Assembly (NCBI GenBank): GCA_951406725.2
Contig: OX597816.1
Coordinates: forward strand, 137,020,001-137,084,000
DNA from: Octopus vulgaris
Taxonomy: Eukaryota
Length of the DNA: 64,000 nt
Reading direction: 5' to 3'
Below, in pieces: positions 11,001 through 60,525 of the stretch. The notes under the pieces were generated by a model. That model saw only the letters and a program-made list of their open reading frames with translations. It did no database searches and was not told the origin of the DNA. The stretch's first letter is position 1. Every line of letters starts with the position of its first letter. The position numbers were made by a program, and so were the translations under genes.

Positions 11001-11001
11001 A

Positions 11002-11408
11002 AGTAGCTTGCTTACTAACAACATGGTTCCGGGTTCAGTCCCACTGCGTGGCACCTTGGGCAAGTGTCTTCTACTATAGCCTCGGGCCGATCAAAGCCTT
11101 GTGAGTGGATTTGGTAGACGGAAACTGAAAGAAACTCGTCGTATATATGTATATATGTATATATATATATATGTGTGTGTATATGTTTGTGTGTCTGTGT
11201 TTGTCCCCGCAACATCGCTTGACAACCGATGGTGTTGTGTTTACGTCCCCGTAACTTAGCGGTTCGGCAAAAGAGACCGATAGAGTAAGTACTAGGCTTA
11301 CAAAGAATAAGTCCTGGGATCGATTTGCCCGACTAAAGGCGATGCTCCAGCATGGCCACAGTCAAATGACTGAAACAAGTAAACGAGAGTAAATAGAGTA
11401 AAGAGTAG
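11002..11408 (+). mobile_element. tRNA-derived SINE; the left breakpoint of the tandem duplication lies inside it
   Basis: B-box-like GGGTTCAGTCCC, conserved body, (AAGAGTA)n tail. Confidence 0.85.
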
Positions 11409-12076
11409 AATGAACAAATTAAGTTGCTTCAGAGGGGCTGCTCCGAACAAGGGGCCCTGAAGCTTAAGCTTCATTAGTTTATGGTAGTTTTATGGTTACT
11501 GCCTGACCCACAGATATATTTCCTCTCTACCTACGCTTCTACCGTTATTCCTATGAACTTAACCCGTTAGAACTACCTGGTCATGTACCACTTCCACTCA
11601 GACGATCTCTAGTCTCTCATTAATCCGCATTAACTAAACCAGAACCACTAAATATTGTTTAATATAATGGTTTCACATTTAGGCACAAGATCAATAATTT
11701 TGAGGGGATAGCGATGAGTCGGTTGCATTGACCACAGTATTTATATGGTATTTTATTCTGTCGACCCCGAAAGGATGACAGGCAATAATGATCTTCGTGT
11801 GATTTGAATTCAGAACGTATATAGTCAGAACAAATACTATAAGGAATTTATTCCGATGTTCTAATGGTAATATAACTCGTAAAACATATGTAAATTAGTT
11901 TGTACAAATAGGGTGCGCATTAACATTTGTACAAATAGGTTTTCTATAACATAAGCAGTCTCGGTCGAAATCTCGTCCACTACTTTTATTCATACACCCT
12001 ATTCTCCCTCTAACTAAAAAATGTTTCAATTCCAAATTAAAACTGAACGAAATTGTTTTCTAGGAAATAATTGTGG

Positions 12077-12110
12077 ATTGGAGGAGAGGAAGGTTAGCGA
12101 GCGTATAAAA
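12077..12110 (+). promoter_or_regulatory. Putative core promoter of copy A: inverted CCAAT (12077-12081) and TATAAAA (12104-12110)
   Basis: Canonical motifs ~100 nt upstream of the ATG, both conserved in the diverged copy C although the spacer between them differs. Confidence 0.65.
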
Positions 12111-12211
12111 GGCGCACTAAAGTATACATTGAAATTAAAACGAGCAAGCAGCTACACTTTAAAAATCATAATCCTTTTCATGAAAGAAAAAGTTCATTGA
12201 AACAGAGAGAG

Positions 12212-13699
12212 ATGATATCCAGAACATTTTTTTTCCTTTTCTTAATTATATTAACAGTGAAAAGTGAAAATAATACGTTTGGAAATGTTATGGAAAAGAT
12301 TGTGTCGGAATACAGTAATTCGACGTCAACTGACAACAACTATGCTCCGTGGTTTTTTGAACAAATGATAAAGCTTCTAAACTGCGGTCCTTTACCGAAA
12401 TTAAACAACAGTCAAATACAATATACTTTGAAATGGGAAGAGGAAAAAATACACCTGCAACAAAAGTGCAACCGCTATTATGAAGCAAGCGTAGAGAATA
12501 CAGCCGATATTATTTGTTGGAATGGTAAATGGATGTATGAAGATAGAAAATGTAAGTTAATAACTTGCCCGATTTTTCCTAAACCTGCAAACAGTTTCAT
12601 GATAAATGTTGCATACACATATAACTCTGTTATTCGCTTTTCCTGTGTTTCTGATTATATTTTGCGAGGAAACAATACAATACGTTGTCAAGAAAATAAA
12701 CAGTGGTCGTCTCTACCACCAATCTGTGAAATTGTTAAATGTCTCCCACCGCATCCACCCAAACATGGCAATGTAAACAATACAAATGAAGTTGAAATTA
12801 ACGAAACAATTCACTACAGTTGCTTAAAACCTTATAATCTGAAAGGTGAATCTGTATTAACTTGTCTTCAAGGCGGTAGCTGGAGCTTTCCGGCACCTGT
12901 CTGCATTTTGAAATGTGTTGTACCTGAAATTGCTGGCAGAGTTGTGACTATTTCTGAAGGTACAATTTTAAAACCAAGAACCTTAATCAATCAAGGAGAG
13001 AAAGTGTTATATTCGTGCAAACGATCCTTCATTCCTGTCGCATTTGGAGTCGTTCAATGCTTTTCAAGTAAATGGTATCCAGACATACTTTGCAGAAAAA
13101 CGTGCAAAATTGAGAAACTACATGGATTAAATTATATTTTGTCACATAATTTTTCAGTTATTGAATATAGCTGTTCAGCAGGAGAAACATTGTTGGGTTA
13201 TTCTAAAAGGACCTGTTTAGAAAATGGAACGTGGAGTGGAAAACTTCCACAGTGTGTAAAGTACTGTCAATTGTTACCCGTGTTTGGCATATACAGCTAC
13301 CGAAATTCAGACACTTTGCAATATCTTCCGTTTGGCAGCACAGTCTTAGAAAATACGAATATTATGTATTCATGTCAACTTCCTTATGTGAAGAGCTCAA
13401 GTAAGAATGTGATGTGTCGTAATGGCATTTTGACCCCCAAACCACGCTGTTCATTTAGAGATATTCAGTTGATAAATTCTGAAGTCAGTTTTACTCATTT
13501 ATCGTCAAACTATTATGTTTGTGAAACAAAATACACTTGCAAATTTTTTGGTTACAGACAGAAACCATGCAGCTATAATAGGTGTCAATATTATGGAAAC
13601 AATCGATGTGTCCAACTAGGCTTTAACAATGCAACATCAGAAATATATATTAGTGCAAATACTACTAATTGTTGTGCTATGCAATGTTATGATGATTAA
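12212..13699 (+). CDS. Secreted six-CCP (sushi/SCR) domain protein with 8-Cys C-terminal domain, copy A (495 aa, single exon)
   Basis: Signal peptide MISRTFFFLFLIILTVKS; six four-Cys modules with the C..P..(Y/F)xC..C..W..PxC pattern (module 6 lacks the Trp); no TM or GPI tail; many N-glycosylation sequons; ATG at 12212 matches the paralog starts. Confidence 0.93.
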   Translation: MISRTFFFLFLIILTVKSENNTFGNVMEKIVSEYSNSTSTDNNYAPWFFEQMIKLLNCGPLPKLNNSQIQYTLKWEEEKIHLQQKCNRYYEASVENTADIICWNGKWMYEDRKCKLITCPIFPKPANSFMINVAYTYNSVIRFSCVSDYILRGNNTIRCQENKQWSSLPPICEIVKCLPPHPPKHGNVNNTNEVEINETIHYSCLKPYNLKGESVLTCLQGGSWSFPAPVCILKCVVPEIAGRVVTISEGTILKPRTLINQGEKVLYSCKRSFIPVAFGVVQCFSSKWYPDILCRKTCKIEKLHGLNYILSHNFSVIEYSCSAGETLLGYSKRTCLENGTWSGKLPQCVKYCQLLPVFGIYSYRNSDTLQYLPFGSTVLENTNIMYSCQLPYVKSSSKNVMCRNGILTPKPRCSFRDIQLINSEVSFTHLSSNYYVCETKYTCKFFGYRQKPCSYNRCQYYGNNRCVQLGFNNATSEIYISANTTNCCAMQCYDD

Positions 13700-14776
13700 T
13701 GTACATAAAATTTATGTTTGTTCTTGCTTGCAATCTTTACATTCAGTTATGACATCGCATAACATTCAGTTATGACAACGTAATGGAAGTCGTTGTACTT
13801 ACGCATATGTGCTTGTTCCTGACATTTATCGTAATATATATAATTGGAAACAGACGTAAAATTTAAACTCGCCTTATAAACCGGCCTTTCAGTCAAAATG
13901 CACACATCAGTAAACTGAGAAGACATTTTTAACAACTTAAAATTGCATTCGTTGTGGCACTCAAGTATCACGGGGATCTTTGATACTAATTTCTATTTAT
14001 CACGTCCCAGGAGGGTATGTTTTCAAGAGAAATTATTTGAACTTGACCGTCAATTCCAAGATCAGTGTAGTATAATTCATATGAGTTTTATATTTGTTAT
14101 TGGCGCTCTCTTTGCCACTTCCCCTCTCTCATTGCTGAGTGCTTTCATGTGTTTACACAAATAGATTGTTATAATATTATTTGGCCCCGTGCCGACAAAA
14201 ATGACGGCTAACTGGGTAATTTTTCAGAGTAACACCTGCACGATTTTCGCAAAGAAAAAAAAAATAACTCGGATTTTTTTGCTTGGAATCAAGTACACTG
14301 TCCTCCTAATATGCTGCAAATCCCTTATTTTGGTTCGAGAATAGTTTGTCTAATAAAATGGAGATTATGATTTTGAAAAAAAAATTCCTTTTCCAGTATT
14401 TGATTTCTTTATTTTTAAAATTTCTTTTGTTTTTATTTAACTTTCCTTCAAAAGATTTTCTGCTTCATGTACTAAACAAGCAAGATTGTGATTGAGAAAA
14501 AAAAATCCAAATTTTAATATTTTGATTTTATTGTTTTCTTCTCTAATTTCGATAGTTTTTTTTTCTTTCTGACTATTGTTTTGGAAACGTCACTCCTTCA
14601 AACAGATTTAAACGTAAAATATTACGGTTATGCGAAAATAGAATTTTTACAAATTCAGCAGCTTCATCGGATTTGGTGTATTTTAAAACATAGCTGGTCA
14701 CAAATACATGAGTGCGCACATGTAATCGTGTGTGTGTACACGAGTGTGTACATACATACATACATACATACATACA

Positions 14777-14812
<36 letters not shown>

Positions 14813-14880
14813 TATGTTTCTATATCCAAATTGAAGGAGTAGAGCAGGTAATATCCTGGCTACATATGTTTCTTATCTAG

Positions 14881-15150
14881 CAGATCCTCTGATATAATAA
14901 TAACGAGGGGGACGCAACTATCTACGCATCTGGCTAATGAGACCTTAATTATATAATGGTTACATTGACGATACGGAATTTCGAGTTAGGTCGCTGAAGA
15001 TAAAATTTGAAACTTTCAAATTTGTTTCTTCCTGCGAGTTAACTTGGGATTCTATATCGACAATGTGACCTTTACCCAATTGAGGTACCTTCACCCTAAT
15101 AAATAGGTAGCTGAGTACCCGTCGTTGAGTAACTATCATAACAGGATCTG
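14881..15150. mobile_element. MITE-like palindromic element (copies at 21368-21636 and ~53388-53610)
   Basis: CAGATCCT...AGGATCTG termini with long imperfect inverted arms. Confidence 0.55.
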
Positions 15151-15561
15151 AAGAAATATATGTAGCTTGGATTTTACACACACACACATATACTCACTCA
15201 GTCGAAGCACTTGATCTTTTTTCACCGTACGACTTCCATCATCCCACTACCAAGTTTGCCATCACCCCATCCTTTCTCATTCAGATGTTGCGACGGAGAA
15301 AGGCACAAACTTCCATTACCCACTACCAAGTTTGCCATCACCCTTTCCTTCCTTATTCATCTATAAACCCCTCCCTTTCTCATTCATATGCTGTGATGGA
15401 GAAATACACATCAGCTTATCGAACCTCGATATGAGAAAAGCCAACAACCTTCGACGGCAACAAATAATTATCGTTCCTGTTGATCCGGAACGTTGTTTTA
15501 ATACCTACCATGGACTGCTCGAAGCTTATAAACTTTCTACATGGATCTCGTGTACACACAA

Positions 15562-15627
<66 letters not shown>

Positions 15628-15849
15628 GCACGCACGCACATATCAAAACAGAAGTGTGGGACAAATTTCTTGATATATTTTATTTTCACACGTTAAAAAT
15701 TGTACATGTAGTATAAACATGAAAAGAAATAACCTCTTAGAAAATTTTTAGACAGAGGATCAAATAATCCAAAATTTACATTTGGTTAAAGCGCTTTGTA
15801 TATAGTTAGTTATTAATCAAGATTCGTATAGATAACTGGGATATATATA

Positions 15850-16505
15850 TCTCTATATTAGAATTCTGAAATGCGAAAAGTTTGTTTGTTTGTTTGTCTG
15901 GTTTTGGCATTGAGAACGGGTTAAAGGCCACTAGATCCCGTCGGATTGACTCCAAAATTTACAGGGACATGTAAAATGAGGTGAGGATGAGAGTGGGCTA
16001 GGTTAGGAATCCCCATCTTAAAAGGTGTCGTTGCTAGGGCCAAAAACGTATTTTGACAAGTCTACTCTCATTCTTTTATGTATCTGTCTTACTCCATCAC
16101 TCACTCTCTTTCCTCCCTTCCTTTCACGTTCTATGTATAACGTCGTTTCACAGCGTCTACCTCCCTTCCCTTCATTTTGTCTTTATAACGTCGTTTCACA
16201 TCGTCCTATATCTCCCCCTCCCGCCTTCGACAGCGCTTTCACACTCTCTCTCTTTACGTCTGTCTGCATTCATAGAGAGAGAATTTTCATCACCACCACC
16301 ACCACACAATCATGAGAACAAATATTATGAATCAGATATTTATTGGGTTAATTTATATATGTGTGTGTGTTCTATATATAAATATGTATATATAATGTAT
16401 ATATACAAAGTGTATATATCTGTATATATATATATATATAATTGGTATACATTTATATATATACCTCACTCTTACCCGCGCGTAGAGCGGGTCACCTTAA
16501 GCTAG
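15850..16505 (+). mobile_element. Non-autonomous Helitron
   Basis: 5' TC, 3' hairpin ACCCGCGCGTAGAGCGGGT followed by CTAG, inserted between A and T. Confidence 0.8.
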
Positions 16506-16519
16506 TATGTATATATTAT

Positions 16520-16891
16520 TTTGTTTCAGTCATTTGACTGTGGCGATGGTGGAGCACCGCCTTTAGTCGAACAAATCGACCCTAGGACTTATTCTTTGTA
16601 GCCCAAGTATTTAATCTATCGGGCTCAAGTGAGCGAACTGCTAAGTTACGGGGATGTAAACACACCAATATCGGTTGTCAAGCGATCTGGGGGACAAACA
16701 CAGATATATGAATACACGCACGGGCACACGCACGACGGGCTTCTTTCAGTTTTCATCTATTAAATCCAGCCACAAGGCTTTGGTTGGTTCGAGGCTGTAG
16801 AAGAAGACACTTGCTCAACGTGCCGCGCAGTGTGACTGAACTTGGAACCATATAGTTGGGAAGCAAGCTTCTTATCACACAGCAACGCCTG

Positions 16892-16959
<68 letters not shown>

Positions 16960-17449
16960 AAACCGAACATACGTACACAAGGCTTGCGTGTGCTGTTGGT
17001 TCGTGAGTCGGCTGCAGTTTAGGTGTAAGAAAATATATTCTCAATGCGGCTGTTGTTAAAAACACCTTTTACTCTTTTACTTGTTTCAGTTTTTTGACTG
17101 CGGCTATGCTGGAGCACCGCCTTTAGTCGAGCAAATCGACCCCAGGACATATTCTTTGTAAGCCTGGTACTTATTCTATCGGTCTCTTTTGCCGAACCGC
17201 TAAGTTCCGGGGACGTAAACACACCAGCATTTTGTTGTCAAGCGATGTTGGGGGTCAGACACACACACACACATACGCACACACACACACAGACATAGAT
17301 ACGACGGTCTTCTTTCAGTTTCCGTCTACCAAACCCACTCACAAGGCTTTGATTAGCTCGAGGCTATAGTAGAAGAGACTTGCTCAAGGTGTCACGCAGT
17401 GGGACTGACGGCTGGTAAGCAAGCTACTTACCACACAGCCGCTCCTGCA
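16520..17449 (-). mobile_element. Two tandem SINE copies (16520-16892, 17066-17449), duplicated at 23048-23941
   Basis: Reverse complement of the 11002-11408 family. Confidence 0.85.
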
Positions 17450-18560
17450 AGTAATTCCCAAGCAAGCAAGATAACACACATCATGTCCCTTCTCGGAGTG
17501 ATAGACATCGATGTTGCGTCATTGTTGTAACTTTTCAATGCCGCGTACCGAACGAGACTTGCTGCAAGCTAAATCGCCGACTATTACTATATGCTAGAAA
17601 CTCGTCGTATATATGTATATATGTATATATATATATGTGTGTGTGTATATGTTTGTGTGTCTGTGTTTGTCCCCGCAACATCGCTTGACAACCGATGGTG
17701 TAGTGTTTACGTCCCCGTAACTTAGCAGTTCGGCAAAAGAGACCGATAGAGTAAGTACTAGGCTTACAAAGAATAAGTCCTGGGATCGATTTGCCCGACT
17801 AAAGGCGGTGCTCTAGCATGGCCACAGTCAAATGACTGAAACAAGTAAACGAGAGTAAATAGAGTAAAGAGTAGAATGAACAAATTAAGTTGCTTCAGAG
17901 GGGCTGCTCCGAACAAGGGGCCCTGAAGCTTAAGCTTCATTAGTTTATGGTAGTTTTATGGTTACTGCCTGACCCACAGATATATTTCCTCTCTACCTAC
18001 GCTTCTACCGTTATTCCTATGAACTTAACCCGTTAGAACTACCTGGTCATGTACCACTTCCACTCAGACGATCTCTAGTCTCTCATTAATCCGCATTAAC
18101 TAAACCAGAACCACTAAATATTGTTTAATATAATGGTTTCTTATTTAGGCACAAGATCAATAATTTTGAGGGGATAGCGATGAGTCGGTTGCATTGACCA
18201 CAGTATTTATATGGTATTTTATTCTGTCGACCCCGAAAGGATGACAGGCAAAAATGATCTTGGCGTGATTTGAATTCAGAACGTATATAGTCAGAACAAA
18301 TACTATAAGGAATTTATTCCGATGTTCTAATGGTAATATAACTCGTAAAACATATGTAAATTAGTTTGTACAAATAGGGTGCGCACTAACATTTGTACAA
18401 ATAGGTTTTCTATAACATAAGCCAGACTATAACGTTAAACAGTCTCGGTCGAAATCTCGTCCACTACTTTTATTCATACACCCTATTCTCCCTCTAACTA
18501 AAAAATGTCTCAATTTCAAATTAAAACTAAACGAAGTTGTTTTCTAGGAAATAATTGTGG

Positions 18561-18594
18561 ATTGGAGGAGAGGAAGGTTAGCGAGCGTATAAAA
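18561..18594 (+). promoter_or_regulatory. Putative core promoter of copy B (ATTGG 18561-18565, TATAAAA 18588-18594)
   Basis: Identical to the copy A motifs. Confidence 0.65.
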
Positions 18595-18693
18595 GGCGCA
18601 CTAAAGTATACATTGAAATTAAAACGAGCAAGCAGCTACACTTTAAAAATCATAATCCTTTTCATGAAAGAAAAAGTTCATTGAAACAGAGAG

Positions 18694-20181
18694 ATGATAT
18701 CCAGAACATTTTTTTTCCTTTTCTTAATTATATTAACAGTGAAAAGTGAAAATAATACGTTTGGAAATGTTATGAAAACGATTGTGTCGGAATACAGTAA
18801 TTCGACGTCAACTGACAACAACTATGCTCCGTGGTTTTTTGAACAAATGATAAAGCTTCTAAACTGCGGTCCTTTACCGAAATTAAACAACAGTCAAATA
18901 CAATATACTTTGAAATGGGAAGAGGAAAAAATACACCTGCAACAAAAGTGCAACCGCTATTATGAAGCAAGCGTAGAGAATACAGCCGATATTATTTGTT
19001 GGAATGGTAAATGGATGTATGAAGATAGAAAATGTAAGTTAATAACTTGCCCGATTTTTCCTAAACCTGCAAACAGTTTCATGATAAATGTTGCATACAC
19101 ATATAACTCTGTTATTCGCTTTTCCTGTGTTTCTGATTATATTTTGCGAGGAAACAATACAATACGTTGTCAAGAAAATAAACAGTGGTCGTCTCTACCA
19201 CCAATCTGTGAAATTGTTAAATGTCTCCCACCGCATCCACCCAAACATGGCAATGTAAACAATACAAATGAAGTTGAAATTAACGAAACAATTCACTACA
19301 GTTGCTTAAAACCTTATAATCTGAAAGGTGAATCTGTATTAACTTGTCTTCAAGGCGGTAGCTGGAGCTTTCCGGCACCTGTCTGCATTTTGAAATGTGT
19401 TGTACCTGAAATTGCTGGCAGAGTTGTGACTATTTCTGAAGGTACAATTTTAAAACCAAGAACCTTAATCAACCAAGGAGAGAAAGTGTTATATTCGTGC
19501 AAACGATCCTTCATTCCTGTCGCATTTGGAGTCGTTCAATGCTTTTCAAGTAAATGGTATCCAGACATACTTTGCAGAAAAACGTGCAAAATTGAGAAAC
19601 TACATGGATTAAATTATATTTTGTCACATAATTTTTCAGTTATTGAATATAGCTGTTCAGCAGGAGAAACATTGTTGGGAGATTCTAAAAGGACCTGTTT
19701 AGAAAATGGAACGTGGAGTGGAAAACTTCCACAGTGTGTAAAGTACTGTCAATTGTTACCCGTGTTTGGCATATACAGCTACCGAAATTCAGACACTTTG
19801 CAATATCTTCCGTTTGGCAGCACAGTCTTAGAAAATACGAATATTATGTATTCATGTCAACTTCCTTATGTGAAGAGCTCAAGTAAGAATGTGATGTGTC
19901 GTAATGGCATTTTGACCCCCAAACCACGCTGTTCATTTAGAGATATTCAGTTGATAAATTCTGAAGTCAGTTTTACTCATTTATCGTCAAACTATTATGT
20001 TTGTGAAACAAAATACACTTGCAAATTTTTTGGTTACAGACAGAAATCATGCAACTATAATAAGTGTCAATATTATGGAAACGCTCGATGTGTCCAACTA
20101 GGCTTTAACAATGCAACATCAGAAATGTATATTAGTGCAAAGACTACTAATTGTTGTGCTATGCAATGTTATGATGATTAA
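18694..20181 (+). CDS. Secreted six-CCP domain protein with 8-Cys C-terminal domain, copy B (495 aa, single exon)
   Basis: Intact ORF; 9 aa differences from copy A. Confidence 0.93.
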   Translation: MISRTFFFLFLIILTVKSENNTFGNVMKTIVSEYSNSTSTDNNYAPWFFEQMIKLLNCGPLPKLNNSQIQYTLKWEEEKIHLQQKCNRYYEASVENTADIICWNGKWMYEDRKCKLITCPIFPKPANSFMINVAYTYNSVIRFSCVSDYILRGNNTIRCQENKQWSSLPPICEIVKCLPPHPPKHGNVNNTNEVEINETIHYSCLKPYNLKGESVLTCLQGGSWSFPAPVCILKCVVPEIAGRVVTISEGTILKPRTLINQGEKVLYSCKRSFIPVAFGVVQCFSSKWYPDILCRKTCKIEKLHGLNYILSHNFSVIEYSCSAGETLLGDSKRTCLENGTWSGKLPQCVKYCQLLPVFGIYSYRNSDTLQYLPFGSTVLENTNIMYSCQLPYVKSSSKNVMCRNGILTPKPRCSFRDIQLINSEVSFTHLSSNYYVCETKYTCKFFGYRQKSCNYNKCQYYGNARCVQLGFNNATSEMYISAKTTNCCAMQCYDD

Positions 20182-21243
20182 TGTACATAAAATTTATGTT
20201 TGTTCTTGCTCGCAATCTTTACATTCAGTTATGACATCGCATAACATTCAGTTATGACAACGTAATGGAAGTCGTTGTACTTACGCATATGTGCTTGTTC
20301 CTGACATTTATCGTAATATATATAATTGGAAACAGACGTAAAATTTAAACTCGCCTTATAAACCGGCCTTTCAGTCAAAATGTACACATCAGTAAACTGA
20401 GAAGACATTTTTAACAACTTAAAATTGCATTCGTTGTGGCACTCAAGTATCACGGGGATCTTTGATACTAATTTCTATTTATCATATCCCAGGATGGTAT
20501 GTTTTCAAGAGAAATTATTTGAACTTGACCGTCAATTCCAAGATCAGTGTAGTATAATTCATATGAGTTTTATATTTGTTATTGGCGCTCTCTTTGCCAC
20601 TTCCCCTCTCTCATTGCTGAGTGCTTTCATGTGTTTACACAAACAGATTATTATAATATTATTTGGCCCCGTGCCGACAAAAATGACGGCTAACTGGGTA
20701 ATTTTTCAGAGTAACACCTGCACGATTATCGCAAAGAAAAAAAAAAAACTCGGATTTTTTTGCTTGGAATCAAGTACACTGTCCTCCTAATATGCTGCAA
20801 ATCCCTTATTTTGGTTCGAGAATAGTTTGTTTAATAAAATGGAGATTATGATTTTGAAAAGAAAAAAATTCCTTTTCCAGTATTTGATTTCTTTATTTTA
20901 AAATTTCTTTTGTTTTTATTTAACTTTCCTTCAAAAGATTTTCTGCTTCATGTACTAAACAAGCAAGATTGTGATTGAGAAATAAAAATCCAAATTTTAA
21001 TATTTTGATTTTATTGTTTCCTTCTCTAATTTTGATAGTTTTTTTTTCTTTCTGACTATTGTTTCGGAAACGTTTCCCAGACTCACTCCTTCAAACAGAT
21101 TTAAACGTAAAATATTACGGTTATGCGAAAATAGAATTTTTACAAATTCAGCAGCTTCATCGGATTTGGTGTATTTTAAAACATAGCTGCTCACAAATAC
21201 ATGCGTGCGCACATGTAATCGTGTGTGTGTGTGCACGAGTGTG

Positions 21244-21305
<62 letters not shown>

Positions 21306-22058
21306 TCTATATCCAAATTGAAGGAGTAGAGCAGGTAGTATCCTGGCTACATATGTTTCTTATCTAGCAGATCCTCTGATATAATAATAACGAGGGGTAC
21401 GCAACTATCTACGCATCGGGCGATGAGACCTTAATTATATAATGGTTATATTGACGATACGGAATTTCGAGTTAGGTCGCTGAAGATAAAATTTGAAACT
21501 TTCAAATTTGTTTCTTCCTGCGAGTTAACTTGGGATTCTATATCGACAATGTGACCTTTACCCAATTAAGGTACCTTCACCCTAATAAATAGGTAGCTGA
21601 GTACCCGTCGTTGAGTAACTATCATAACAGGATCTGAAGAAATATATGTAGCTTGGATTTTACACACACACACACACATATACTCACTCAGTCGAAGCAC
21701 TTGATTTTTTTTCACCGTACGACTTCCATCATCCCACTACCAAGTTTGCCATCACCCCATCCTTTCTCATTCAGATGTTGCGACGGAGAAAGGCACAAAC
21801 TTCCATTACCCACTACCAAGTTTGCCATCACCCTTTCCTTCCTTATTCATCTATAAACCCCTCCCTTTCTCATTCATATGCTGTGATGGAGAAATACACA
21901 TCAGCTTATCGAACCTCGATATGAGAAAAGCCAACAACCTTCGACGGCAACAAATAATTATCGTTCCTGTTGATCCGGAACGTTGTTTTAATACCTACCA
22001 TGGACTGCTCGAAGCTTATAAACTTTCTACATGGATCTCGTGTACACACACACGCACG

Positions 22059-22163
<105 letters not shown>

Positions 22164-22385
22164 GCACGCACGCACATATCAAAACAGAAGTGTGGGAAAA
22201 ATTTCTTGATATATTTTATTTTCACATGTTAAAAATTGTACATGTAGTATAAACATGAAAAGAAATAACTTGTTAGAAAATTTTTAGACAGAGGATCAAA
22301 TAATCCAAAATTTACTTTTGGTTAAAGCGCTTTGTATATAGCTAGTTATTAATCAAGATTCGTATAGATAACTGGGATATATATA

Positions 22386-23033
22386 TCTCTATATTAGAAT
22401 TCTGAAATGCGAAAAGTTTGTTTGTTTGTTTGTCTGGTTTTGGCATTGAGAACGGGTTAAAGGCCACTAGATCCCGTCGGATTGACTCCAAAATTTACAG
22501 GGACATGTAAAATGAGGTGAAGATGCGAATGGGCTAGGTTAGGAATCCCCATCTTAAAAGGTGTCGTTGCTAGGGCCAAAAACGCACTTTGACAAGTCTA
22601 CTCTCATTCTTTTATGTATCTGTCTTACTCCATCACTCACTCTCTTTCCTCCCTTCCTTTCACGTTCTATGTATAACGTCGTTTCACAGCGTCTACCTCC
22701 CTTCCCTTCCCTTCACTTTGTCTTTATAACGTCGTTTCACAGCGTCCTATATCTCCCCATCCCCGCCTTCGACAGCGCTTTCACACTCTCTCTTTACGTC
22801 TGTCTGCATTCATAGAGAGAGAATTTTCATCGCCACCACCACCACACAACCATGAGAACAAATATTATGAATCAGATATTTATTGGGTTAATTTATATAT
22901 GTGTGTGTGTTCTATATATAAATATGTATATATAATGTATATATACAAAGTGTATATATATATATATAATTGGCATACATTTATATATATACCACACTCT
23001 TACCCGCGCGTAGAGCGGGTCACCTTAAGCTAG
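22386..23033 (+). mobile_element. Non-autonomous Helitron (duplicated copy)
   Basis: Same TC...hairpin-CTAG structure as 15850-16505. Confidence 0.8.
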
Positions 23034-23420
23034 TATGTATATATTATTTTGTTTCAGTCATTTGACTGTGGCGATGGTGGAGCACCGCCTTTAGTCGAAC
23101 AAATCGACCCTAGGACTTATTCTTTGTAGCCCAAGTATTTAATCTATTGGGCTCAAGTGAGCGAACTGCTAAGTTACGGGGATGTAAACACACCAATATC
23201 GGTTGTCAAGCGATTTGGGGGACAAACACATATATGACTGCACGCACGGGCACACGCACGACGGGCTTCTTTCAGTTTTTATAAATTAAATCCAGCCACA
23301 AGGCTTTGGTTGGTTCGAGGCTGTAGAAGAAGACACTTGCTCAACGTGCCGCGCAGTGTGACTGAACTTGGAACCATATAGTTGGGAAGCAAGCTTCTTA
23401 TCACACAGCAACGCCTGTAT

Positions 23421-23451
<31 letters not shown>

Positions 23452-24140
23452 AAACCGAACATACGTACACAAGGCTTGCGTGTGCTGTTGGTTCGTGAGT
23501 CGGCTGCAGTTTAGGTGTAAGAAAATATATTCTCAATGCGGCTGTTGTTAAAAACACCTTTTACTCTTTTACTTGTTTCAGTTTTTTGACTGCGGCTATG
23601 CTGGAGCACCGCCTTTAGTCGAGCAAATCGACCCCAGGACATATTCTTTGTAAGCCTGGTACTTATTCTATCGGTCTCTTTTGCCGAACCGCTAAGTTCC
23701 GGGGACGTAAACACACCAGCATTTTGTTGTCAAGCGATGTTGGGGGTCAGACACACACACGCACATACGCACACACACACACAGACATACATACGACGGT
23801 CTTCTTTCAGTTTCCGTCTACCAAACCCACTCAGAAGGCTTTGATCAGCTCGAGGCTATAGTAGAAGAGACTTGCTCAAGGTGCCACGCAGTGGGACTGA
23901 CGGCTGGTAAGCAAGCTACTTACCACACAGCCGCTCCTGCAAGTAATTCCCAAGCAAGCAAGATAACTCACATCATGTCCCTTCTCGGAGTGATAGACAT
24001 CGATGTTGCGTCATTGTTGTAACTTTTCAATGCCGCGTACCGAACGAGACTTGCTGCAAGCTAAATCGCCGACTATTACTATATGCTAAATAGTTTCAGA
24101 ACCATATATTGGCATGTCCAGACGTTTCATGGCATGGTAA

Positions 24141-26190
24141 TCATCATCATGATCGTTTTGCGTCCGCTTTCCACGCCAGCATGGGTTAGACGGTTCAACT
24201 GGAGTCTGGGAAGCCAGAAGGCTGCACCAGGCCCAGTCTGATCTGGCAATTTTTCTACGGCTGGATGCCCTTCCTAACGCCAACCGTTCCGGTTGCTTTT
24301 TACGTGTCACCGACATGGTGTCCAGGCGAGGCTGGCAACGGCCACGATTGGATGGCGCTTTTTACGTGCCACCGGCATGGAGGCCAGTCGGGGCAGCGCT
24401 GACAACGGTCACGTTCGGATGGTTCTCTTATGTGCCCCCGGCACTGGTATCCCAGCTACAATTTCCATTGATGTTGATAGATTTCGATTTTGATTCTGAT
24501 TCTCACTTGCCTCAACAGGTCTTCACAAGTAGAGTTTTGTGTCCCAAGAAGGAAAGATATGCATAAGTGAACCGGCTACATTCCAGGTAGAGGCCACGGG
24601 TTATGGTCTCATTAGTCCTGCCAGGTCTTCTCATGCTCAGCATACTTCCATAGGTCTACCTCTTCCACAGGATCCCTCAACCGCTAGGGTGTGGCGCTTT
24701 TTCACACAGCTATCCTCATCCATTCTTGCCACATGACCATACCAGCGCAAACGTCTCTCTTGCACACCACAACTGATGCTTCTTAGGTCCAACTTTTCTT
24801 TCAAGATACTTACACTCTGTCGAGTATGAACACTGACATTACACATCCATCAGAGCATACTAGCTTCATTTCTAGCGAGCTTACGCATATCCTCAGCAGT
24901 CACGGCCCATGTTTCACTGCCATGTAGCATGGCTGTTCGTACACATGCGTTATACAGTCTGCCTTTTACTCTGAGCGAGAGGCCCTTTGTCACCAGCAGA
25001 GGTAAGAGCTCTCTGAACTTTGCCCAGGCCATTCTTACTCCAGCAGTGACACTTTCAGCACATTCGCCCCCGCTACTGACTTGGTCACCTAGGTAACGGA
25101 AGCTAGCAACAATTTCTAGTTTTTCTCCCTGGAATGTGGCGGAGGTCTCTGCGCATTTTCAGTGTTTATTGCTCCCGAGCATCTGCCATATACAAAAACT
25201 ATCTTCCTAGTTAGCCTTCCTTTGACATTGCTGCACCTCTTATGTGTCCATAGCTTACACTTGGTGCATCTTATAGAGTTTCTACCTACGCCTTTTCTAC
25301 AGATCAAGCAGGGCCACCTACCTGAAGGCGTTTGTGATTTGTCAACTTTCCTACTTATTAGGACTTTGGTTTTAGCTAGGTTGACTCTAAGGCCCTTCGA
25401 TTCTAATCCTAGCTTCCACACCTGAAACTTCTCCTCCAGTTCTGATAGTGACTCAGCAATTAGAGCAAGGTCATCAGCATAGAGGAGCTCCCAGGGGCAT
25501 CCTGTCTTGAATTCCTCCGTTATTGCCTGGAGGACTATGATGAATAGGAGGGGGGGGGGGGAAGACTGAAGCTTGGTGGACCCCTAGCTCTACTCTGAAT
25601 TCTTCACTGTACTCGTTGCCAACCCTCACCTTACTAGCAGCGTCTCTGTACATGGCTTGTACAGCTCTCACTGACCATTCATCTATCCCTATTTTCTTCA
25701 TTGATCACCAGATAAGGGATCGGGGGACCCTGCCGAAGGCTTTCTCCATGTCAACAAAATCCAGGTACAGGGGCTTATCTTTGGCTAGGTATTTCTCCTG
25801 CAGCTGCCGTACCAGGAATATAGCATCAGTGGTACTTTTCCCTGGCACGAACCCAAACTGCATCTCATCTAAACTAACTCTCTCTCTAATTAGTTGGGCT
25901 ATGACCCTCTCCGTAACCTTCATTACCTGATTCAACAGCTTGATACCCCTGTAGTTATTTGTATCTAGGGCGTCACCTTTACCTTTGTAGCAGTTGACTA
26001 TTATGCTGCTACACCAGTCATTGGGAATGACTCCTTCGTGTATCACCTGGTTAACTATACGGGTGACTAGGCTATAGCCGACACTACCAGATATTTTGAG
26101 CATTTCTGCAGTAATTGCTGATGGGCCTGGGGCTTTCCCTGTCTTCATGCTTCTAATTGCCTTAACTACCAAGGAACTGTCAATTCGGAC
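24141..26190 (-). mobile_element. 5'-truncated, frameshifted RTE-clade LINE
   Basis: [52 protein letters not shown] motifs; (GAT)n tail. Confidence 0.92.
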
Positions 26191-26514
26191 ACACACACAC
26201 ACACACATATATATATACACACACACACACACACATATATATGCATACATATATGTATATATATATATATGCATACATACATATATGTATATATATATAC
26301 ATACATATATATATATGCATACATATATATATATGCATACATATATATATATATATGCATACATATATATATGCATACACATATATATATGCATATATGC
26401 ATACATATATATATATATATATGCATATATGCATACATATATATATATATATATGCATATATGCATACATATATATATATATATATGTATACATATATAT
26501 ATATATATATATAT

Positions 26515-44232: not shown

Positions 44233-45180
44233 CTATTTTCGAAAGTCAAAAGAACCATTTGCATCACAAATTTCATCAGCCATGGTACTGAAATAGTCAG
44301 CCTTCATGGCTTCATTAATGATTTGCCTCCTGATAACCTTTACAAGACATTCAATCAGTTGATTCTGGATAACAGTAGATAAATATGTGGCATTCTTTGG
44401 TGCATTTTCCAGAAAGGCTGCAAATTGAGGATTTTCTTTTGCTTTCCACTTAATAAAAAAGTTGAAATTACTGTCTCCTTCCTTCTTCTCATGAGACCGG
44501 CTTCCTCTAAGTGAAATTCCTCTTTTTGCAAGGGAAGTGATTACATCAAGAATGCATAAAAGAACCAATCTGTTCTTTTCAACTCGCTGAGCATATGCTT
44601 TAGAAAGATGTTCTATGATTGATTTCTTTTCTTCTTGGTATATCATCAAAAATTCATGATCCATTTTCATTGCTCCTTGATGGGTATCTGACTTTTCATG
44701 AAGAGTTAGAGACCCTCTTTCTCGACCATCCCGGAATGGTTTGGTTACAAATTCAGGATTGCTCATATCTTGGGCAGCAAAGCAAATACAGACTGAACAA
44801 AAAACTGCATCCAGTGACTTAGAAACCTAAGCCATGGAAACTTTTCTTCCTATGTTAGAGAATCCCTTCTGTTCTGGTGATTCTTTGGGAATGTAAACTA
44901 CATTGGTGGATTCCAGTTCTGCTGAAGAATGGTCTTGCGCTCATTGTCACCCATAAATGCTCCACTAACTAGCCCAATATCAAGTTCAGGCGAATTTTGC
45001 ATTGCTTGCTCCTAAATTTCAAAGACCCCAATTTTTGAGATGGCTTGTATTTGTAGTATTGAGGTACTAAATATCAGAGATTCATTGTTGGCATTACTAG
45101 TTTCAGGTGTAGGACAACTGGTGCATTCATCCAATATATCTTCAGAGGTGTCTTGACCATCACTTCTTTGGCATGATGAT
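44233..45180 (-). mobile_element. hAT-superfamily (ZMYM1/DUF4371-like) transposase fragment
   Basis: HEKSDTH, LAKRGISLRG, NATYLSTVIQNQLIECL, YFSTMADE; truncated just after the first catalytic Asp. Confidence 0.8.
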
Positions 45181-52381: not shown

Positions 52382-53634
52382 TCATCATCATCATCATCAT
52401 CATCATTATTATTATCATCATCATCATTATTATTATTATTATTATTATTATTAATATTATTATTATTGTTATCATTATTATTATTATCATTATTATTTCA
52501 TCACAAAATCAAGGTTTTTAAACACACACACACGGCGCAAAAACCACACACACACATACACACATGTCCCAATTATCTGTACGACTCCTGATTAATAGCT
52601 ATGTACAGAACGCTTCAACCAAATGTAAATTTTGTATTATTTGATCCTTTTTATGAAAAATCTCTAAAAGGACGTTTCTTACGTGTTCCATATGTACAAT
52701 TTTCTGACCCCTTTCATTAAACGAAACGTGTAAAGATAAATAAATGATATCAAGAAAAGGTTGCACGCTCCTGTTTTCGCACAAACATGTGTATGTATGT
52801 ATGTATGTATGTATGTATGTATGTATGTATGTATGTATGTATGTATGTATGTATGTATGTACGTACGTAAAATGTACATTCATTCAAAATGTGACCGCAT
52901 GTGTACCGTTGGCGATTTTTTCCTCCGTCTTCCCTTCTTTGGATCTTTCCTTTTCCTATGTTTCTGACGAAGAGCTCCGCTCGAAACGTTAAACCCTCCT
53001 TCTTTTCTTCTTTCCTGAGCGTCCAATAATACTATACCTGTTCCACGTCTTCGCGTTGTTGTGTTTTCTCTTTGTGGTTTCATGTTTGGATTAACTATGT
53101 AAGTACGTAATGTACGTTCGTACATAAGAGATCCAAGGATATAAAAGTAGGAAGATTGTAAGATTCGAGCAGTCCTTGGTAGGCATAAAACAACGTTCAG
53201 GAACAAGAGCAAAAATAATTTATTGTTGTCGAAGGTTGCTGGCTTTTTTCATATCGAGGTTCGATAAGCTGCAAAAAAATTTTATAGCTCACGCTTAGCA
53301 GCTTCAGTTGGTATGAATGAGAACAATAACCCAAATTGAAGGAGTGGAGCAGGTAAAATCCAGGCTCCATAAATTTCTTAAAACTATCAGATCCTCTGAT
53401 ATAATAATTACTCAACGTGGGGTACCCAGCTACCCACTCGTTAGGTTGAAGATACGTTAGTTGTGTAAAGGTTACATTATCGATAAGGAATCACAATGTA
53501 GCTCGTAGGAAGATATAATTTAAAACTTTAAGATTATAACTTCTGTGACTTAACTCGAAATTCTTTAACGTTAATATAAATAGCTGATTACCTCTCTTTG
53601 AGTAATTATTATACCAGTGCATTTGCTACAATAG

Positions 53635-53689
<55 letters not shown>

Positions 53690-53942
53690 TTAGAGACAGG
53701 TATTCTCCATATAGAAGACACCACGTAATGCTCAAGAGATTTAGCCTTTAGCAGGTAGAGGAGTAAATGTAAGGACAAGCAATTTAAGCAAGTCGATATA
53801 CAAAAACTATTAAATACATTTAATACAAAAAATGTACATATGTTTACATATAAAAAGGTCCGGTTACACAGAATAGAAATGATATCAGGAATTAAAGGGG
53901 TTTCAACCCTTTTAATTCCTGATAACATTTCTATTCTGTGTA

Positions 53943-54265
53943 CGTTGAGGGAACTTGATTACGAAGTTCTTCCTCGCCAAGCTTATTCCTCAGACCTTTC
54001 TCCTACCGACTACCATTTTTTCAAGCACCTTGATGGTTTCCTTCGAGAGAAGGGGTTCAAAAATCAAACCGATGCTGAAAGTGCGTTCAAAGAGTTCATC
54101 AGCTCCAGGACTTCAGATTTTTATGTTTCTGGAATAAACAAACTTGTAACTCGTTGGCAAAAATGTGTTGATTGTAATGGCACTTTCTTTGATGACTAAA
54201 ATTTCCGCATTGTATGTAAATGAATTTCATGTTTGAAAACGTTGCTTACTTTTTACTCAGCCTGA
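53943..54265 (+). mobile_element. Mariner transposase C-terminal fragment
   Basis: AYSSDLSPTDYHFFKHL (YSPDLAPxD motif), GINKLVTRWQKCVDCNG. Confidence 0.85.
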
Positions 54266-54359
54266 CATATCGACTTGTTTAACTTGCTTGTCCTTACATT
54301 TACTCCAATATATATATATCTGTGTGTGTGTGTGTGTGTGTGTATACATACACGCATAC

Positions 54360-54395
<36 letters not shown>

Positions 54396-54925
54396 GTATG
54401 CATGTATGTATGTATATATGTATGTATTTATATATATACATACATTCATACATACATACATACATACATACATACATACATACATACATACATACATACA
54501 TACATACATACATACATACAATGAAAAGTGAGGGTACGATAATTACCTGTTTGCTTGAAAGTGGAGGGAAAACCCTCCAAAATCATGGATTTCTCATTAT
54601 ATGTAAACACGCGCGGAGAATATAGCAAATATATTTCTCCGAAACAGTCCTCCTACTTGTAAGATACATATAGTAAAATACAAATAAGATAGACATTCTG
54701 GTATCAATTAATATCGCTTTGTGGGTTGAGTCATCAGTGAAAGTTCGTCAGCCAGACTTAGAGTACCCTGACTTTCTATTATTATATATTTTGCCTATTT
54801 GAATAATGTTTGCTGGCCGCTTTTTCGTTATTTTTTATAGATAATGATACCTTATTTGAGGATATATATAAATATATAAATATTTTTTTCCTCTGTCTTC
54901 CCTTCTCGGGATCTTTCCTTCTCCT

Positions 54926-54994
54926 TTGTTTCCGACGAAGAGCTCCGCTCGAAACGTTAAACCCTCCTTCCCTTCTTTCCTGAGCGTCAAATAA
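54926..54994 (+). ncRNA. Hammerhead-like motif in a short Penelope-derived repeat (second copy 52958-53029)
   Basis: TTGTTT-CCGACGA-A-GAGC(TCC)GCTC-GAAA-CGTT..AGCG-TC-AAATAA; non-canonical core variant. Confidence 0.5.
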
Positions 54995-55059
54995 TACTTT
55001 AATTGTTCCACGTCCTCGCGTTGCTGTGTTTTTTTCTGTGTTTTCTTGTTTGGACTAAC

Positions 55060-55129
<70 letters not shown>

Positions 55130-56034
55130 TGTATGTACATACAAGCGCGCGCATATATTTGTGAGCGGGTGTGTTTTAAAACGTACCAAATTAGAAGAAA
55201 CTATTGAATTTGTGAGAATTATATTTTTGCATAATCGTAATCACTGACACCTAAATCTAGTTAAAGGAGTGAATCTGGGAAACGTTTTGAAGAAAATGCT
55301 GAAAGCAAAAAACTTACAGAAATAAGGGATGGAGACAATAGAATTAAAATATCAAAATTTGGAATTAATTTTTTTGTTATTTACTCACTCACAATCTTGC
55401 TTGTTTAATTACGTAAAACAGGAAAAAATTTCGAAGAAAAGTCAAATAAAAACAAAACAAATTTGAAAAGTAAAAGAAATCAAATACTACAACAGGAATA
55501 ATTTTTTTTCCAAAATCATAATCACCATTTTATTAAACAAATTGTTAGAAATTACAGGTTTTAGCGAACTAAATAGTATCGAATCGAATCATTTCAATAT
55601 GATTATCACACACACATACATTGGTATTTAACAGTGGAACCCAGGTTTACTAAAACTGATAAAATAGTGCAACAATAATGGGTTAACAAAACCCTTCGAC
55701 TCTTTCTATCCAAAGAGTTCTTGAAACTAATACATGTGCTATATTTTTTCATAGATCTATCTATTTTGAGTACCACCATTAAAACGAATTATTTCACGCC
55801 TCTCGATGTTTTAAATTCTTATGACCTATGTATATATCTCCATTTGCAACGTCCGTTTACGCAAAAATTCTGAAAGGAAAATCACGTAATATTTGCGTTT
55901 TTAGGCATTGGGGAGGCACTTCCCCAGAATTGCATCAACAAAGGCTAGCTATTACATTGTGGCATATATGTATATATAGTGTTGAAAGGAAGAAAATGGA
56001 GAATTAATGAGGACCTGACATCCTCGAATTGATT

Positions 56035-56077
<43 letters not shown>

Positions 56078-57152
56078 AACACACACAAACACACACACAC
56101 ACATGTATGTATGTATGTATGTATGTATGTATGTATATATATATATGTATATATATAACAGACAGCTACATAAATGTATACATATATGCATATATAGATT
56201 ATTTTAATGTGTCATTATGATTATTCTATTATGCAGCCACATGAAAGTACTATGTCTCATGGAACTGTGTCTCACCCCGTTAATAACAAATACAAAATTC
56301 ATCTTATGAATTACACTCCACTAATCTTGGAATTGCCAATGCAAATCCAAATACTTTCTCGTGAAAACGTACTCTCCTTGAGGCATGATAAAAAGAAATT
56401 AGCACCAAAGATCCCCGTAATACTTCAGATCCCCAGCGAACACAATTTTAAATTATTTAGTAATTTCTTCCAATTTACTGATGTGTACATCTGACTGAAA
56501 AGCGGGTGAATGGAATTATGATGATGTATAATCCTTTTTACTGTAGATATGATAAACATAAATCGGGCTCTACACAACACTTCTAACGCTAAAGTATATT
56601 GAATAACTATGTTTTTGCACTACAAAACAAACACAAACATCATGCTACAGCTTCACTAGAGCTGAGCACCCTCACTTTACACAAATATTACATAAACATG
56701 TAATGAAGAGGTCATTGGAAAATAATTCAGAGCCAACAAAACAGTCTACTTAGAAGCAAACATCGAGAGACTGGAATATGTAATAAACTATTGTGTAAAG
56801 GATCGTGGGGATGGTCAGAACAATGCGAAGTAAATGCAAGGCAAATCATAAAAATTAATGCTTCATAGTGATTATTTCATTAGAATACACTATGTTTGAT
56901 GGAAAGCATAAAATAATCCAATACAAGCAGAAGCAGAAACAACGAAGGATAATTTTTTTAAAGATCAAAAAACGTTTAAATTACACGATTGTTTCCAACT
57001 ATTTATACAATGATGTCAGAAAGCTGCAAATATGGGAAACGGCAATGAATTCCATCACGTTGTTTGAAATGGATTTAATGCAAAGGAATACATTTTATTG
57101 CAAGCAAGAACATCTATGTAAATTTAAAATACAATTAGAAAATACTTTGATA

Positions 57153-58637
57153 TTAATCATCAGAACATTCCAAAATACAACAATCAATAATTCTTGCATC
57201 AATATATAATTCTGATGTTGCATTGTTAAAGCCTACATTGACACAATGAAACGAGCCTTCACTTTTACAATCTATCAAAGTACAAGATTGCTGACTGTAA
57301 CCAAAAAAATGGCAAGAATATTTTTTTGTTTCACAAACATAATACTTTTCCGACCTATGGGAAAAAATGACTTGATAATCTATCCGCTGAATACTTCTAA
57401 ACGAACAGCGTGGTTGTGGGGTCAATACGCCATTACTACACATTACAATCTGTGTATACTCAAAACCAGATCGACACGTGTAAGAAATATTCGTGTTTTC
57501 TGGGACTGTGCTGCCAAATGGAAGATATTGCAAAGTGTCTGAATTTCGGTAGCTATATATGTTAGAGTCAGGTATCAATTGACAGTTCTTTACACACCGT
57601 GGAAGTTTTCCACTCCACGTTCCATTTTCTAAACAGGTCCTTTTAGAATCTCCCAACAATGTTTCTCCTGCTGAACAGCTATATTCAATAACTGAAAAAT
57701 TATGTGACAAAATATAATTTAATCCATGTAGTTTCTCAATTTTACACGTTTTTCTGCAAAGTATGTCTGGATACCATTTACTTGAAAAGCATTGAACGAC
57801 TCCAAATGCGACAGGAATGAAGGATCGGTTGCAAGAATATAACACTTTCTCTCCTTGATTGATTAAGGTTCTTGGTTTTAAAATTGTACCTTCAGAAATA
57901 GTCACAACTCTGCCAGCAATTTCAGGTACAACACATTTCAAAATGCAGACAGGTGCCGGAAAGCTCCAGCTACCGCCTTGAAGACAAGTTAATACAGATT
58001 CACCTTTCAGATTATAAGGTTTTAAGCAACTGTAGTGAATTGTTTCGTTAATTTCAACTTCATTTGTATTGTTTACATTGCCATGTTTGGGTGGATGCGG
58101 TGGGAGACATTTAACAATTTCACAGATTGGTGGTAGAGACGACCACTGTTTATTTTCTTGACAACGTATTGTATTGTTTCCTCGCAAAATATAATCAGAA
58201 ACACAGGAAAAGCGAATAACAGAGTTATATGTGTATGCAACATTTATCATGAAACTGTTTGCAGGTTTAGGAAAAATCGGGCAAGTTATTAACTTACATT
58301 TTCTATCTTCATACATCCATTTACCATTCCAACAAATAATATCGGCCATATTCTCTACGCTTGCTTCAAAATAGCGGTTGCACTTTTGTTGCAGGTGTAT
58401 TTTTTCCTCTTCCCATTTCAAAGTATATTGTATTTGACTGTTGTTTAATTTCGGTAAAGGGCCACAGTTTAGGAGCTTTATCATTTGTTCAAAAAACCAC
58501 AGAGAAAAGTTGTTGTCAGTTGACGTCGAATTACTGTATTCCGACACAATCGTTTTCATAACATTTCCAAACGTATTATTTTCACTTTTCACTGTTATTA
58601 TAATTAAGAAAATAATATAAAATGTTCTGGATACCAT
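57153..58637 (-). CDS. Secreted six-CCP domain protein with 8-Cys C-terminal domain, copy C (494 aa, single exon)
   Basis: Intact ORF with signal peptide; all cysteines conserved with A/B; AATAAA at 57094-57099 (minus strand). Confidence 0.93.
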   Translation of the reverse strand: MVSRTFYIIFLIIITVKSENNTFGNVMKTIVSEYSNSTSTDNNFSLWFFEQMIKLLNCGPLPKLNNSQIQYTLKWEEEKIHLQQKCNRYFEASVENMADIICWNGKWMYEDRKCKLITCPIFPKPANSFMINVAYTYNSVIRFSCVSDYILRGNNTIRCQENKQWSSLPPICEIVKCLPPHPPKHGNVNNTNEVEINETIHYSCLKPYNLKGESVLTCLQGGSWSFPAPVCILKCVVPEIAGRVVTISEGTILKPRTLINQGEKVLYSCNRSFIPVAFGVVQCFSSKWYPDILCRKTCKIEKLHGLNYILSHNFSVIEYSCSAGETLLGDSKRTCLENGTWSGKLPRCVKNCQLIPDSNIYSYRNSDTLQYLPFGSTVPENTNISYTCRSGFEYTQIVMCSNGVLTPQPRCSFRSIQRIDYQVIFSHRSEKYYVCETKKYSCHFFGYSQQSCTLIDCKSEGSFHCVNVGFNNATSELYIDARIIDCCILECSDD

Positions 58638-58789: not shown

Positions 58790-58923
58790 AAGGAGTGGCT
58801 GTGTGGAAAGTAGCATGCTTATCAACCACATGGCTCCGGGTTCAGTCCCACTGCGTGAGACTTTGGGCACTGACCAAAGCCTTGTGAGTGGACTTTGTAG
58901 ACAGAAACTGAAAGAAGCCTGTC

Positions 58924-58926
<3 letters not shown>
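58790..58926 (+). mobile_element. SINE 5' fragment abutting the copy C promoter
   Basis: AGGAGTGGCTGTGTGG..GGGTTCAGTCCCACTGCG head. Confidence 0.8.
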
Positions 58927-58980
<54 letters not shown>

Positions 58981-59063
58981 GGTCCCGGGTTGATTCGGGG
59001 TTAACCACAGTAAATAAGGTACTCAATACATAGCAGAGTAAAATTAATTTATTATATAGAAGG

Positions 59064-59407: not shown

Positions 59408-59455
<48 letters not shown>

Positions 59456-59665: not shown

Positions 59666-59728
<63 letters not shown>

Positions 59729-60268: not shown

Positions 60269-60299
<31 letters not shown>

Positions 60300-60486: not shown

Positions 60487-60525
<39 letters not shown>

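Follow-up and report, generated by a model that had tools for sequence, protein, structure and literature searches.

Octopus Sushi-module proteins with a uniform stalk and a variable cysteine-rich tail, encoded by a tandem gene pair and an inverted paralog

Within the window analyzed here, a stretch of 64,000 nucleotides of the Octopus vulgaris genome (assembly GCA_951406725.2, contig OX597816.1, positions 137,020,001 to 137,084,000), three genes designated A, B and C represent a genuine family of constant-stalk, variable-tip proteins on which diversifying selection probably acts. The explanation we prefer, to which we give an even chance, is that the stalk is kept uniform by gene conversion and the tip diverges under selection on binding, most likely of microbial or parasite surfaces. 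Exchange among paralogs would keep the Sushi stalk alike, the tail would diverge through selection on its ligand, and the surfaces concerned would be met in mucus or blood.

Protein architecture

The products of A, B and C have the same order of parts (Table 1), namely a hydrophobic N-terminus, followed in A by a short helical segment, then six Sushi/CCP modules and finally a tail of 81 residues, eight of them cysteines. The Pfam family PF00084 matches all three at 101-107 bits (cut-off 20.7; E about 1e-30), and the 24 stalk cysteines fall into six sets of four between residues 58 and 413, giving modules of about 60 residues. Module 6, with a model pLDDT of 68-95, takes the fold of a C1s CCP module (Z 7.0, rmsd 2.1, 58 residues aligned). 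No membrane or GPI-like segment was found, the top 19-residue hydropathy being 1.56 and the C-terminus polar, and the products of all three genes are predicted to be secreted. Between A/B and C, protein identity is 97-98% over residues 19-349 and 54-56% in the tail.

Table 1. Features of genes A, B and C and of their surroundings (positions in the window)
Feature	Position	Strand	Basis or remark
Gene A	12212..13699	+	Intronless 495-aa ORF; PF00084 E 3e-29, cysteine spacing, hydropathy
Gene B	18694..20181	+	495 aa; tip (20047-20142) equals O. sinensis P0007 at 6/6 sites
Gene C	57153..58637	-	494 aa; inverted older paralog of A/B
TATA-like box	12104..12109	+	108 bp 5' of the ATG of A; C has one upstream too; function inferred
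Predicted signal peptide, residues 1 to ~18	12212..12265	+	Hydrophobic N-terminus, helix in structure model
Sushi modules 1-5 (constant stalk), residues 57-349	12380..13258	+	Three stretches by Pfam, the rest by four-cysteine spacing
Sushi module 6, residues 350-414	13259..13453	+	A = B; 68% identity to C
Hypervariable tail, residues 415-495	13454..13696	+	Eight conserved cysteines, FGY motif
A/B difference cluster	13565..13660	+	Seven non-silent differences in six codons; A/B comparison
Tandem unit 1 (6.47 kb), contains A	11130..17595	+	Self-comparison
Tandem unit 2, contains B	17596..24088	+	Self-comparison
A/C identical tract, 512 bp	12503..13014	+	Partner in C about 57835-58346; putative gene-conversion tract by difference lists and silent sites
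Patches downstream of C	52564..56507	-	69-84% identity to DNA 3' of A/B; remains of an old segmental duplication

Several further features accompany the coding sequences. The 5' leaders of both A and B contain a short upstream ORF (12180-12200 in A), and the same ATG in C opens a frame that runs out of frame over the main start. The signal AATAAA is absent within 600 bp past the stop codon of A and B (13699-14300 for A), and C has one 54 bp downstream. In addition, the signal peptide of C (58586-58637, compared with 12212-12265 in A) and its residues 44-46 are closer to the proteins P0010 and P0003 than to A/B, which makes C a three-part mosaic.

Family distribution and the tail domain

With residues 350-495 as the query, six of 35 candidates matched, all of them from Octopus. 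A family profile gave 13 matches out of 1773 at E 1e-20, of which ten are named proteins of Octopus or Argonauta, one is a fragment and the remaining two are generic Sushi proteins with 25-28% identity, and the tail alone, searched against 1.84 billion representatives, returned three matches, one of which is an O. bimaculoides fragment and the other two repetitive proteins (P0028 with 41 stretches and P0030 with 8). No squid or cuttlefish member appeared in the sequence searches with the family profile and the tail, a result that does not prove absence. The family is intronless and, in these searches, confined to Octopus and Argonauta. It is multi-copy in each octopod proteome with matches, and the A and B proteins are 96% identical to P0001 and P0007 of O. 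sinensis. Some members are odd: P0009 has lost the end of its tail, P0012 is truncated, P0025 is without two modules and P0015 is annotated as a fusion with an unrelated arrestin-like region, all of which points to either birth-and-death turnover or annotation errors.

No description of this Sushi-stalk family was found in the literature by topic or by accession. The family was likewise not found in an ink proteome supplement (PMC10142993), in supplements on differential expression in paralarvae (PMC6635378) or in the main texts of four further articles (PMC11431876, PMC9635652, PMC7656900 and PMC11525497).

Searches for the identity of the tail gave no match at E 10 among PDB sequences, either with phmmer or with a 14-sequence profile, and Pfam found no family common to 14 tails, one of which gave a sub-threshold match to Ig_5 (E 0.035). 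Atlas clusters, with Sushi clusters skipped, contained no usable tail match. At the feature level of the Atlas, the tail scores 0.83-0.85 against Sushi_2 clusters, where values under 0.9 are leads only, and the Pfam model of Sushi_2 (PF09014) matched none of the 14 tails, the structure model of the tail being too poor for fold comparison. In two AlphaFold models, the tail is of low confidence (pLDDT 37-61 in one of them); fold searches with such models matched module 6 alone and say nothing on the fold of the tail. A likeness to PAN/apple, SRCR or three-finger domains was discarded on account of the cysteine spacing. Judged by sequence comparison, the tail is an unclassified domain outside the Pfam, PDB-sequence and Atlas families searched.

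Clustered differences in the tip of A and B

Genes A and B differ at 12 of 1488 nucleotides, and seven of these differences lie within the 96 bp of the tip cluster. They change six codons (from A to B, P452S, S454N, R457K, N464A by two bases, I478M and N483K), and none is silent. A recount of both ORFs agrees with the initial annotation on this point, as it does on the preceding part of the gene, described there as about 1350 bp with five differences, two of them silent: the 1353 bp before the tip contain E28K, K29T, Y330D and silent changes at codons 260 and 329. The reported loss of an N-T-T sequon through N483K is also present, A having N483-T-T and B none. The further remark that B and C differ at five of the six tip positions is correct, yet 15 of the 32 positions there differ between B and C (P = 0.06).

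The clustering of A/B differences in the tip is real. Corrected for scanning, the probability that a 96-bp stretch anywhere in the coding sequence holds seven of the 12 differences is 2e-4, and merging adjacent changes (six of ten events) gives P 8e-4. Compared with its flanks, the tip has seven differences in 96 bp against 0/365 upstream and 2/340 downstream (P 5e-4). Non-coding 96-bp segments of the duplicate have at most six SNPs when microsatellites are masked; without masking, those on one microsatellite had seven or more differences. By themselves, the seven tip changes prove little. The neutral probability that all seven are non-silent is 0.10-0.18 (binomial, and simulation on the real tip), so that this count alone is within chance, and the codon likelihood test on A and B gave P 0.07-0.09.

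Tandem duplication and locus layout

The two tandem units meet at 17595/17596 in a base-exact, gapless junction that joins non-homologous ends with about 1 bp of microhomology. Their non-coding divergence is 83/4918 sites, or 64/4499 (1.42%) after six microsatellites were masked by hand. At a rate of 2.4e-9 substitutions per site per year, estimated for the blue-ringed octopus (PMC7656900), this corresponds to about 3 million years, near the 2.5 million years given for the split of O. vulgaris and O. sinensis.

A divergence of 1.42% is also near the heterozygosity of O. vulgaris, which is 1.22% according to PMC10700109 (reported range 1.1-1.22%), and this proximity would suit the view that A and B are two alleles of one locus misassembled in tandem, or that their differences are consensus errors. 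Such an artifact is very improbable, given the exact junction between non-homologous ends and the situation in O. sinensis, where a record of the same length carries two such genes, N483 being present in one and K483 in the other, which argues that the duplication is real and common to both species. Moreover, all six tip residues of B and four of the six of A (P452, R457, I478 and N483) are present in other octopus proteins, and even if A and B were allelic, the tip would be a strongly polymorphic site.

The rest of the window contains several repeats. Positions 59043-62505 form a 3.46-kb near-perfect inverted repeat around an AT-rich satellite, with arm ends 99% identical. It lies upstream of the promoter homology of C, at a distance of about 260 bp, and represents either a foldback element of recent origin or a fold-back in the assembly; its satellite contains the long ORFs at 60193-62220. 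Between B and C, transposon pieces at 25705-26466, 28480-29022 and 44233-44766 include reverse transcriptase, PIF1 helicase (Helitron-like) and DUF4371. One dispersed repeat has copies at 11001-11141, 16733-16891, 17302-17448 and 58791-58924, which lie on the 5' border of the tandem unit, within the unit and at the upstream edge of the homology of C. Neither Rfam nor tRNA searches gave matches.

Probable gene conversion in the stalk

The case for gene conversion as the cause of the stalk identity between A/B and C is strong. Within modules 1-4, a stretch of 488 bp is free of differences between B and C, as is one of 512 bp between A and C, and from about codon 355 on the divergence between A/B and C amounts to 10-35 differences per 75 bp. 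Among codons for the same residue, 6/312 differ in residues 19-349 against 12/87 in residues 350-495 (P 3e-5), and the corresponding counts for four-fold sites are 3/115 in the stalk and 7/30 in residues 350-495 (P 7e-4). Since the silent sites of the stalk are nearly identical, purifying selection cannot explain its uniformity, and conversion can. The downstream flank of C, only 69-84% identical, marks C as an old duplicate; taken together, flanks and tail have diverged by 20-30% between C and A/B.

Protein trees were each built with 16 of 19 rows, leaving out P0021, P0022 and one of P0025 or P0009. In the stalk tree, a single clade (100/100) unites A, B and C with P0001 and P0007, and the stalks group by species, the pairings A with P0001 or B with P0007 being rejected (AU P 0.003). 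In the tail tree, C falls outside A, B, P0001 and P0007, and a grouping of all five is not rejected (P 0.089). For conversion between A and B themselves, the evidence is not significant: the silent differences number two where 4-5 would be expected (P 0.14-0.21). Conversion likely works on the stalk and spares the tail, a pattern that the initial annotation does not mention; in C, the 3' UTR shows the same degree of divergence as the tail, so the conversion tract may simply end there.

Probable selection on the tail

In an alignment of 15/19 proteins, the columns of modules 1-5 have an entropy of 0.44-0.64 bits and those of the tail 1.55-1.69 bits. With A left out, the six sites that differ between A and B rank among the family's most variable positions (P 0.005-0.008), with P 0.068 when the whole A/B clade is left out. 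Variable sites among A, B, P0001 and P0007 make up 10/80 positions of the tail and 11/414 elsewhere (P 6e-4), and sites variable between the species 4/80 and 5/414 (P 0.04). Relative to the non-coding rate, non-synonymous change between A and B runs 2.6 times as fast in the tail (P 0.02; P 0.06 if codon 464 is counted once), and in the stalk three such changes were counted where 15 would be expected (P 2e-4).

Fitted to A, B and C, a codon model gave an omega of 0.35 in the stalk and of 1.2-1.4 over the whole tail, the latter not above 1 by the test (P 0.4-0.6). When the 79 usable tail sites were split by their variability in 11 other homologs, the 37 sites of the variable class gave an omega of 2.4-3.9, with P 0.003-0.066 across the six settings used (fitting kappa gave 0.066 and 0.027, and fixing it at 2.5 or 4 gave 0.003-0.033), and variable sites over residues 350-495 gave 1.7-2.6 (P 0.002-0.105). 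This site-class test was run with purpose-written three-sequence code, and its signal comes mainly from the C branch.

These values also bear on relaxed constraint combined with chance, in which the cysteine frame alone would matter, the loops would drift at an omega of about 1 and conversion would stop before the 3' end. The whole-tail omega, the chance level of the all-non-silent count and the divergence of the C 3' UTR are all in line with such drift, which we consider unlikely: a mean omega of at least 1 despite eight fixed cysteines implies that some tail sites evolve faster, the omega of the variable class agrees with this, and the excess of A/B differences in the tip over both flanks tells against drift as well. 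Selection on tail sites is moderately supported, on a family-level basis. The positive selection proposed in the initial annotation is borne out to that degree by the family comparisons, but not by the direct tests on the seven changes, which are non-significant.

Age and possible donors of the tips

Both O. sinensis copies have S452, N454, K457, A464 and M478, as in B, and the outgroup P0010, also from O. sinensis, has R457 and I478, as in A, together with D464, whose inferred codon would be one step from those of both A and B. The tail tree places A outside B, P0001 and P0007 (92/87), and a clade of A and B is not rejected (AU P 0.105). The occurrence of N483 and K483 in O. sinensis and of R457 and I478 in the outgroup indicates that the tips are probably older than the duplicates look. 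The description of A and B as young duplicates needs correcting, the tip difference being probably partly old. There is moderate support for the tip of A being an older lineage than those of B and the O. sinensis copies, one that was preserved as the remainder of the gene became homogenized. On the simplest reading, the two tips would have split before O. vulgaris and O. sinensis did, with changes on both lines; the stalks would afterwards have been homogenized inside each species, and the A-type gene of O. sinensis would have acquired a B-type tip up to residue 478.

Alternatively, A could have received its tip as a short tract converted from a divergent allele or from an unseen paralog close to it, selection being unneeded at this event. 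The island-like clustering is compatible with such a tract, as are the residues K29, Y330, R457 and I478 that A has in common with P0010 and the mosaic nature of a family with further members elsewhere. Y330, found elsewhere only in O. sinensis P0010, lies beside a silent change, the adjacent A/B differences at 13198-13199 comprising silent G329 and Y330D, a pair that is possibly a micro-conversion. As to the donor, C has the base of A at only one of the seven sites and was rejected; tblastn and blastn (word 7) searches of the window for a donor fragment matched A, B and C only; and a whole-tract donor like P0010 was rejected because it differs from A at many tip sites common to A and B. A neutral tract should, in addition, carry about two silent changes, and an unseen donor shifts the question to why the donor tip differs in amino acids only. 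On this evidence, an origin of the A tip by such a tract is distinctly unlikely; the initial annotation had offered it as the alternative to selection, and it survives in the form of a possible closer unseen paralog.

Comparison with known systems and possible function

Database names such as "complement factor H-like", "P-selectin-like" and "SVEP1-like" mirror the Sushi content only. Judged by domain content, A, B and C are outside the factor H, selectin and SE-CTX families. Like factor H and FHR proteins, they form a soluble rod of tandem Sushi/CCP modules, with Foldseek matches of the E 1e-17 class. Factor H, however, consists of 20 CCP modules and nothing else, the RCA family being built of CCP only, whereas A, B and C have six modules followed by an eight-cysteine tail that does not match CCP, a single exon and about 20% identity. 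In factor H-type proteins, the C-terminal end recognizes surfaces, and the paralogs undergo gene conversion. Beta-2-glycoprotein I (apolipoprotein H), the best structural match of the full model, has few CCP modules and an atypical ligand-binding terminal domain, but it is a single conserved gene and not a diversifying family. Selectins combine a C-type lectin and an EGF domain with a membrane anchor, whereas A, B and C have Sushi as their only Pfam domain and no membrane segment. SVEP1 and CSMD are very long chains with vWA, pentraxin, EGF or CUB domains, all absent from the 495-residue octopus proteins.

Homogenization of paralogs outside a specificity-determining segment is seen in RHD/RHCE and in primate opsins; here, unlike those cases, the divergence of C extends into the 3' flank, and selection against conversion is not proven. 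SE-CTX and DECA-CTX are, like A, B and C, secreted cephalopod proteins that include Sushi modules, but on a comparison of domain content A, B and C are without their EGF, TSP1 and LDLa modules. SE-CTX, of 1052 aa with EGF, Sushi, TSP1 and LDLa, is reported from squids and cuttlefish only and was not found in octopuses. Amphioxus VCBPs and mollusc FREPs resemble the octopus proteins in being secreted multigene products with a constant and a variable part at mucosal or blood sites (PMC13428168), whereas Ig, fibrinogen and chitin-binding domains are absent from A, B and C and the variable part is C-terminal and outside known families. By analogy with these systems, the stalk may be a spacer or a shared effector-binding rod, and the tail a ligand-binding head.

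According to PMC10138644, skin mucus of O. vulgaris yielded a peptide of the stalk (residues 244-256), identified by one spectrum of high confidence, which was assigned to 12 database proteins, including P0001, P0007 and three paralarval transcriptome ORFs. This peptide is present in A, B and C alike and is not attributable to one gene, and the mucus samples are described there as rich in hemocyanin; the ORF lengths of the paralarval transcripts, 508 and 505, do not agree with those of A, B and C. The peptide and the paralarval ORFs do show that the family is translated, and that this happens ahead of sexual maturity. Together with the mucus peptide, the constant-stalk, variable-tip build favors host-microbe recognition, as in VCBPs and FREPs, and support for such a role is weak to moderate.

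The same evolution could also have been driven by a non-microbial partner in reproduction (spermatophore, oviduct or egg coat) or in saliva or venom, a role that we entertain tentatively. Fast-evolving secreted cysteine-rich proteins are common in reproduction and venom, intronless genes are often testis-expressed, and the SE-CTX of cuttlefish contains Sushi modules, all of which would count for it. The family ORFs in the paralarval transcriptome and the peptide in skin mucus count against it, as do the lack of the accessory SE-CTX modules in A, B and C and the fact that SE-CTX was not found in octopuses.

Implications

What we retain is an octopod family with a Sushi stalk likely homogenized by conversion and an unclassified, rapidly changing tail. 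The locus would be a clear instance in which conversion works on one segment of a gene and the adjoining segment diverges, and labels such as "factor H-like" and "P-selectin-like" conceal a lineage-specific family with an unclassified domain. The family is compact and single-exon, and its tail is small enough for expression alone, which makes the ligand directly testable. A 2026 review of immune diversification (PMC13428168) describes FREPs for gastropods and bivalves and, in its available part, names no diversified recognition family for cephalopods. A bolder proposal, which we put forward as doubtful yet worth weighing, is that the genes belong to an undescribed octopod recognition repertoire, in which a conversion-standardized stalk would carry an eight-cysteine binding domain and variants would have outlasted a species split by diversifying selection. 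If this is true, the germline of cephalopods would encode a diversified system for recognizing microbes or parasites.
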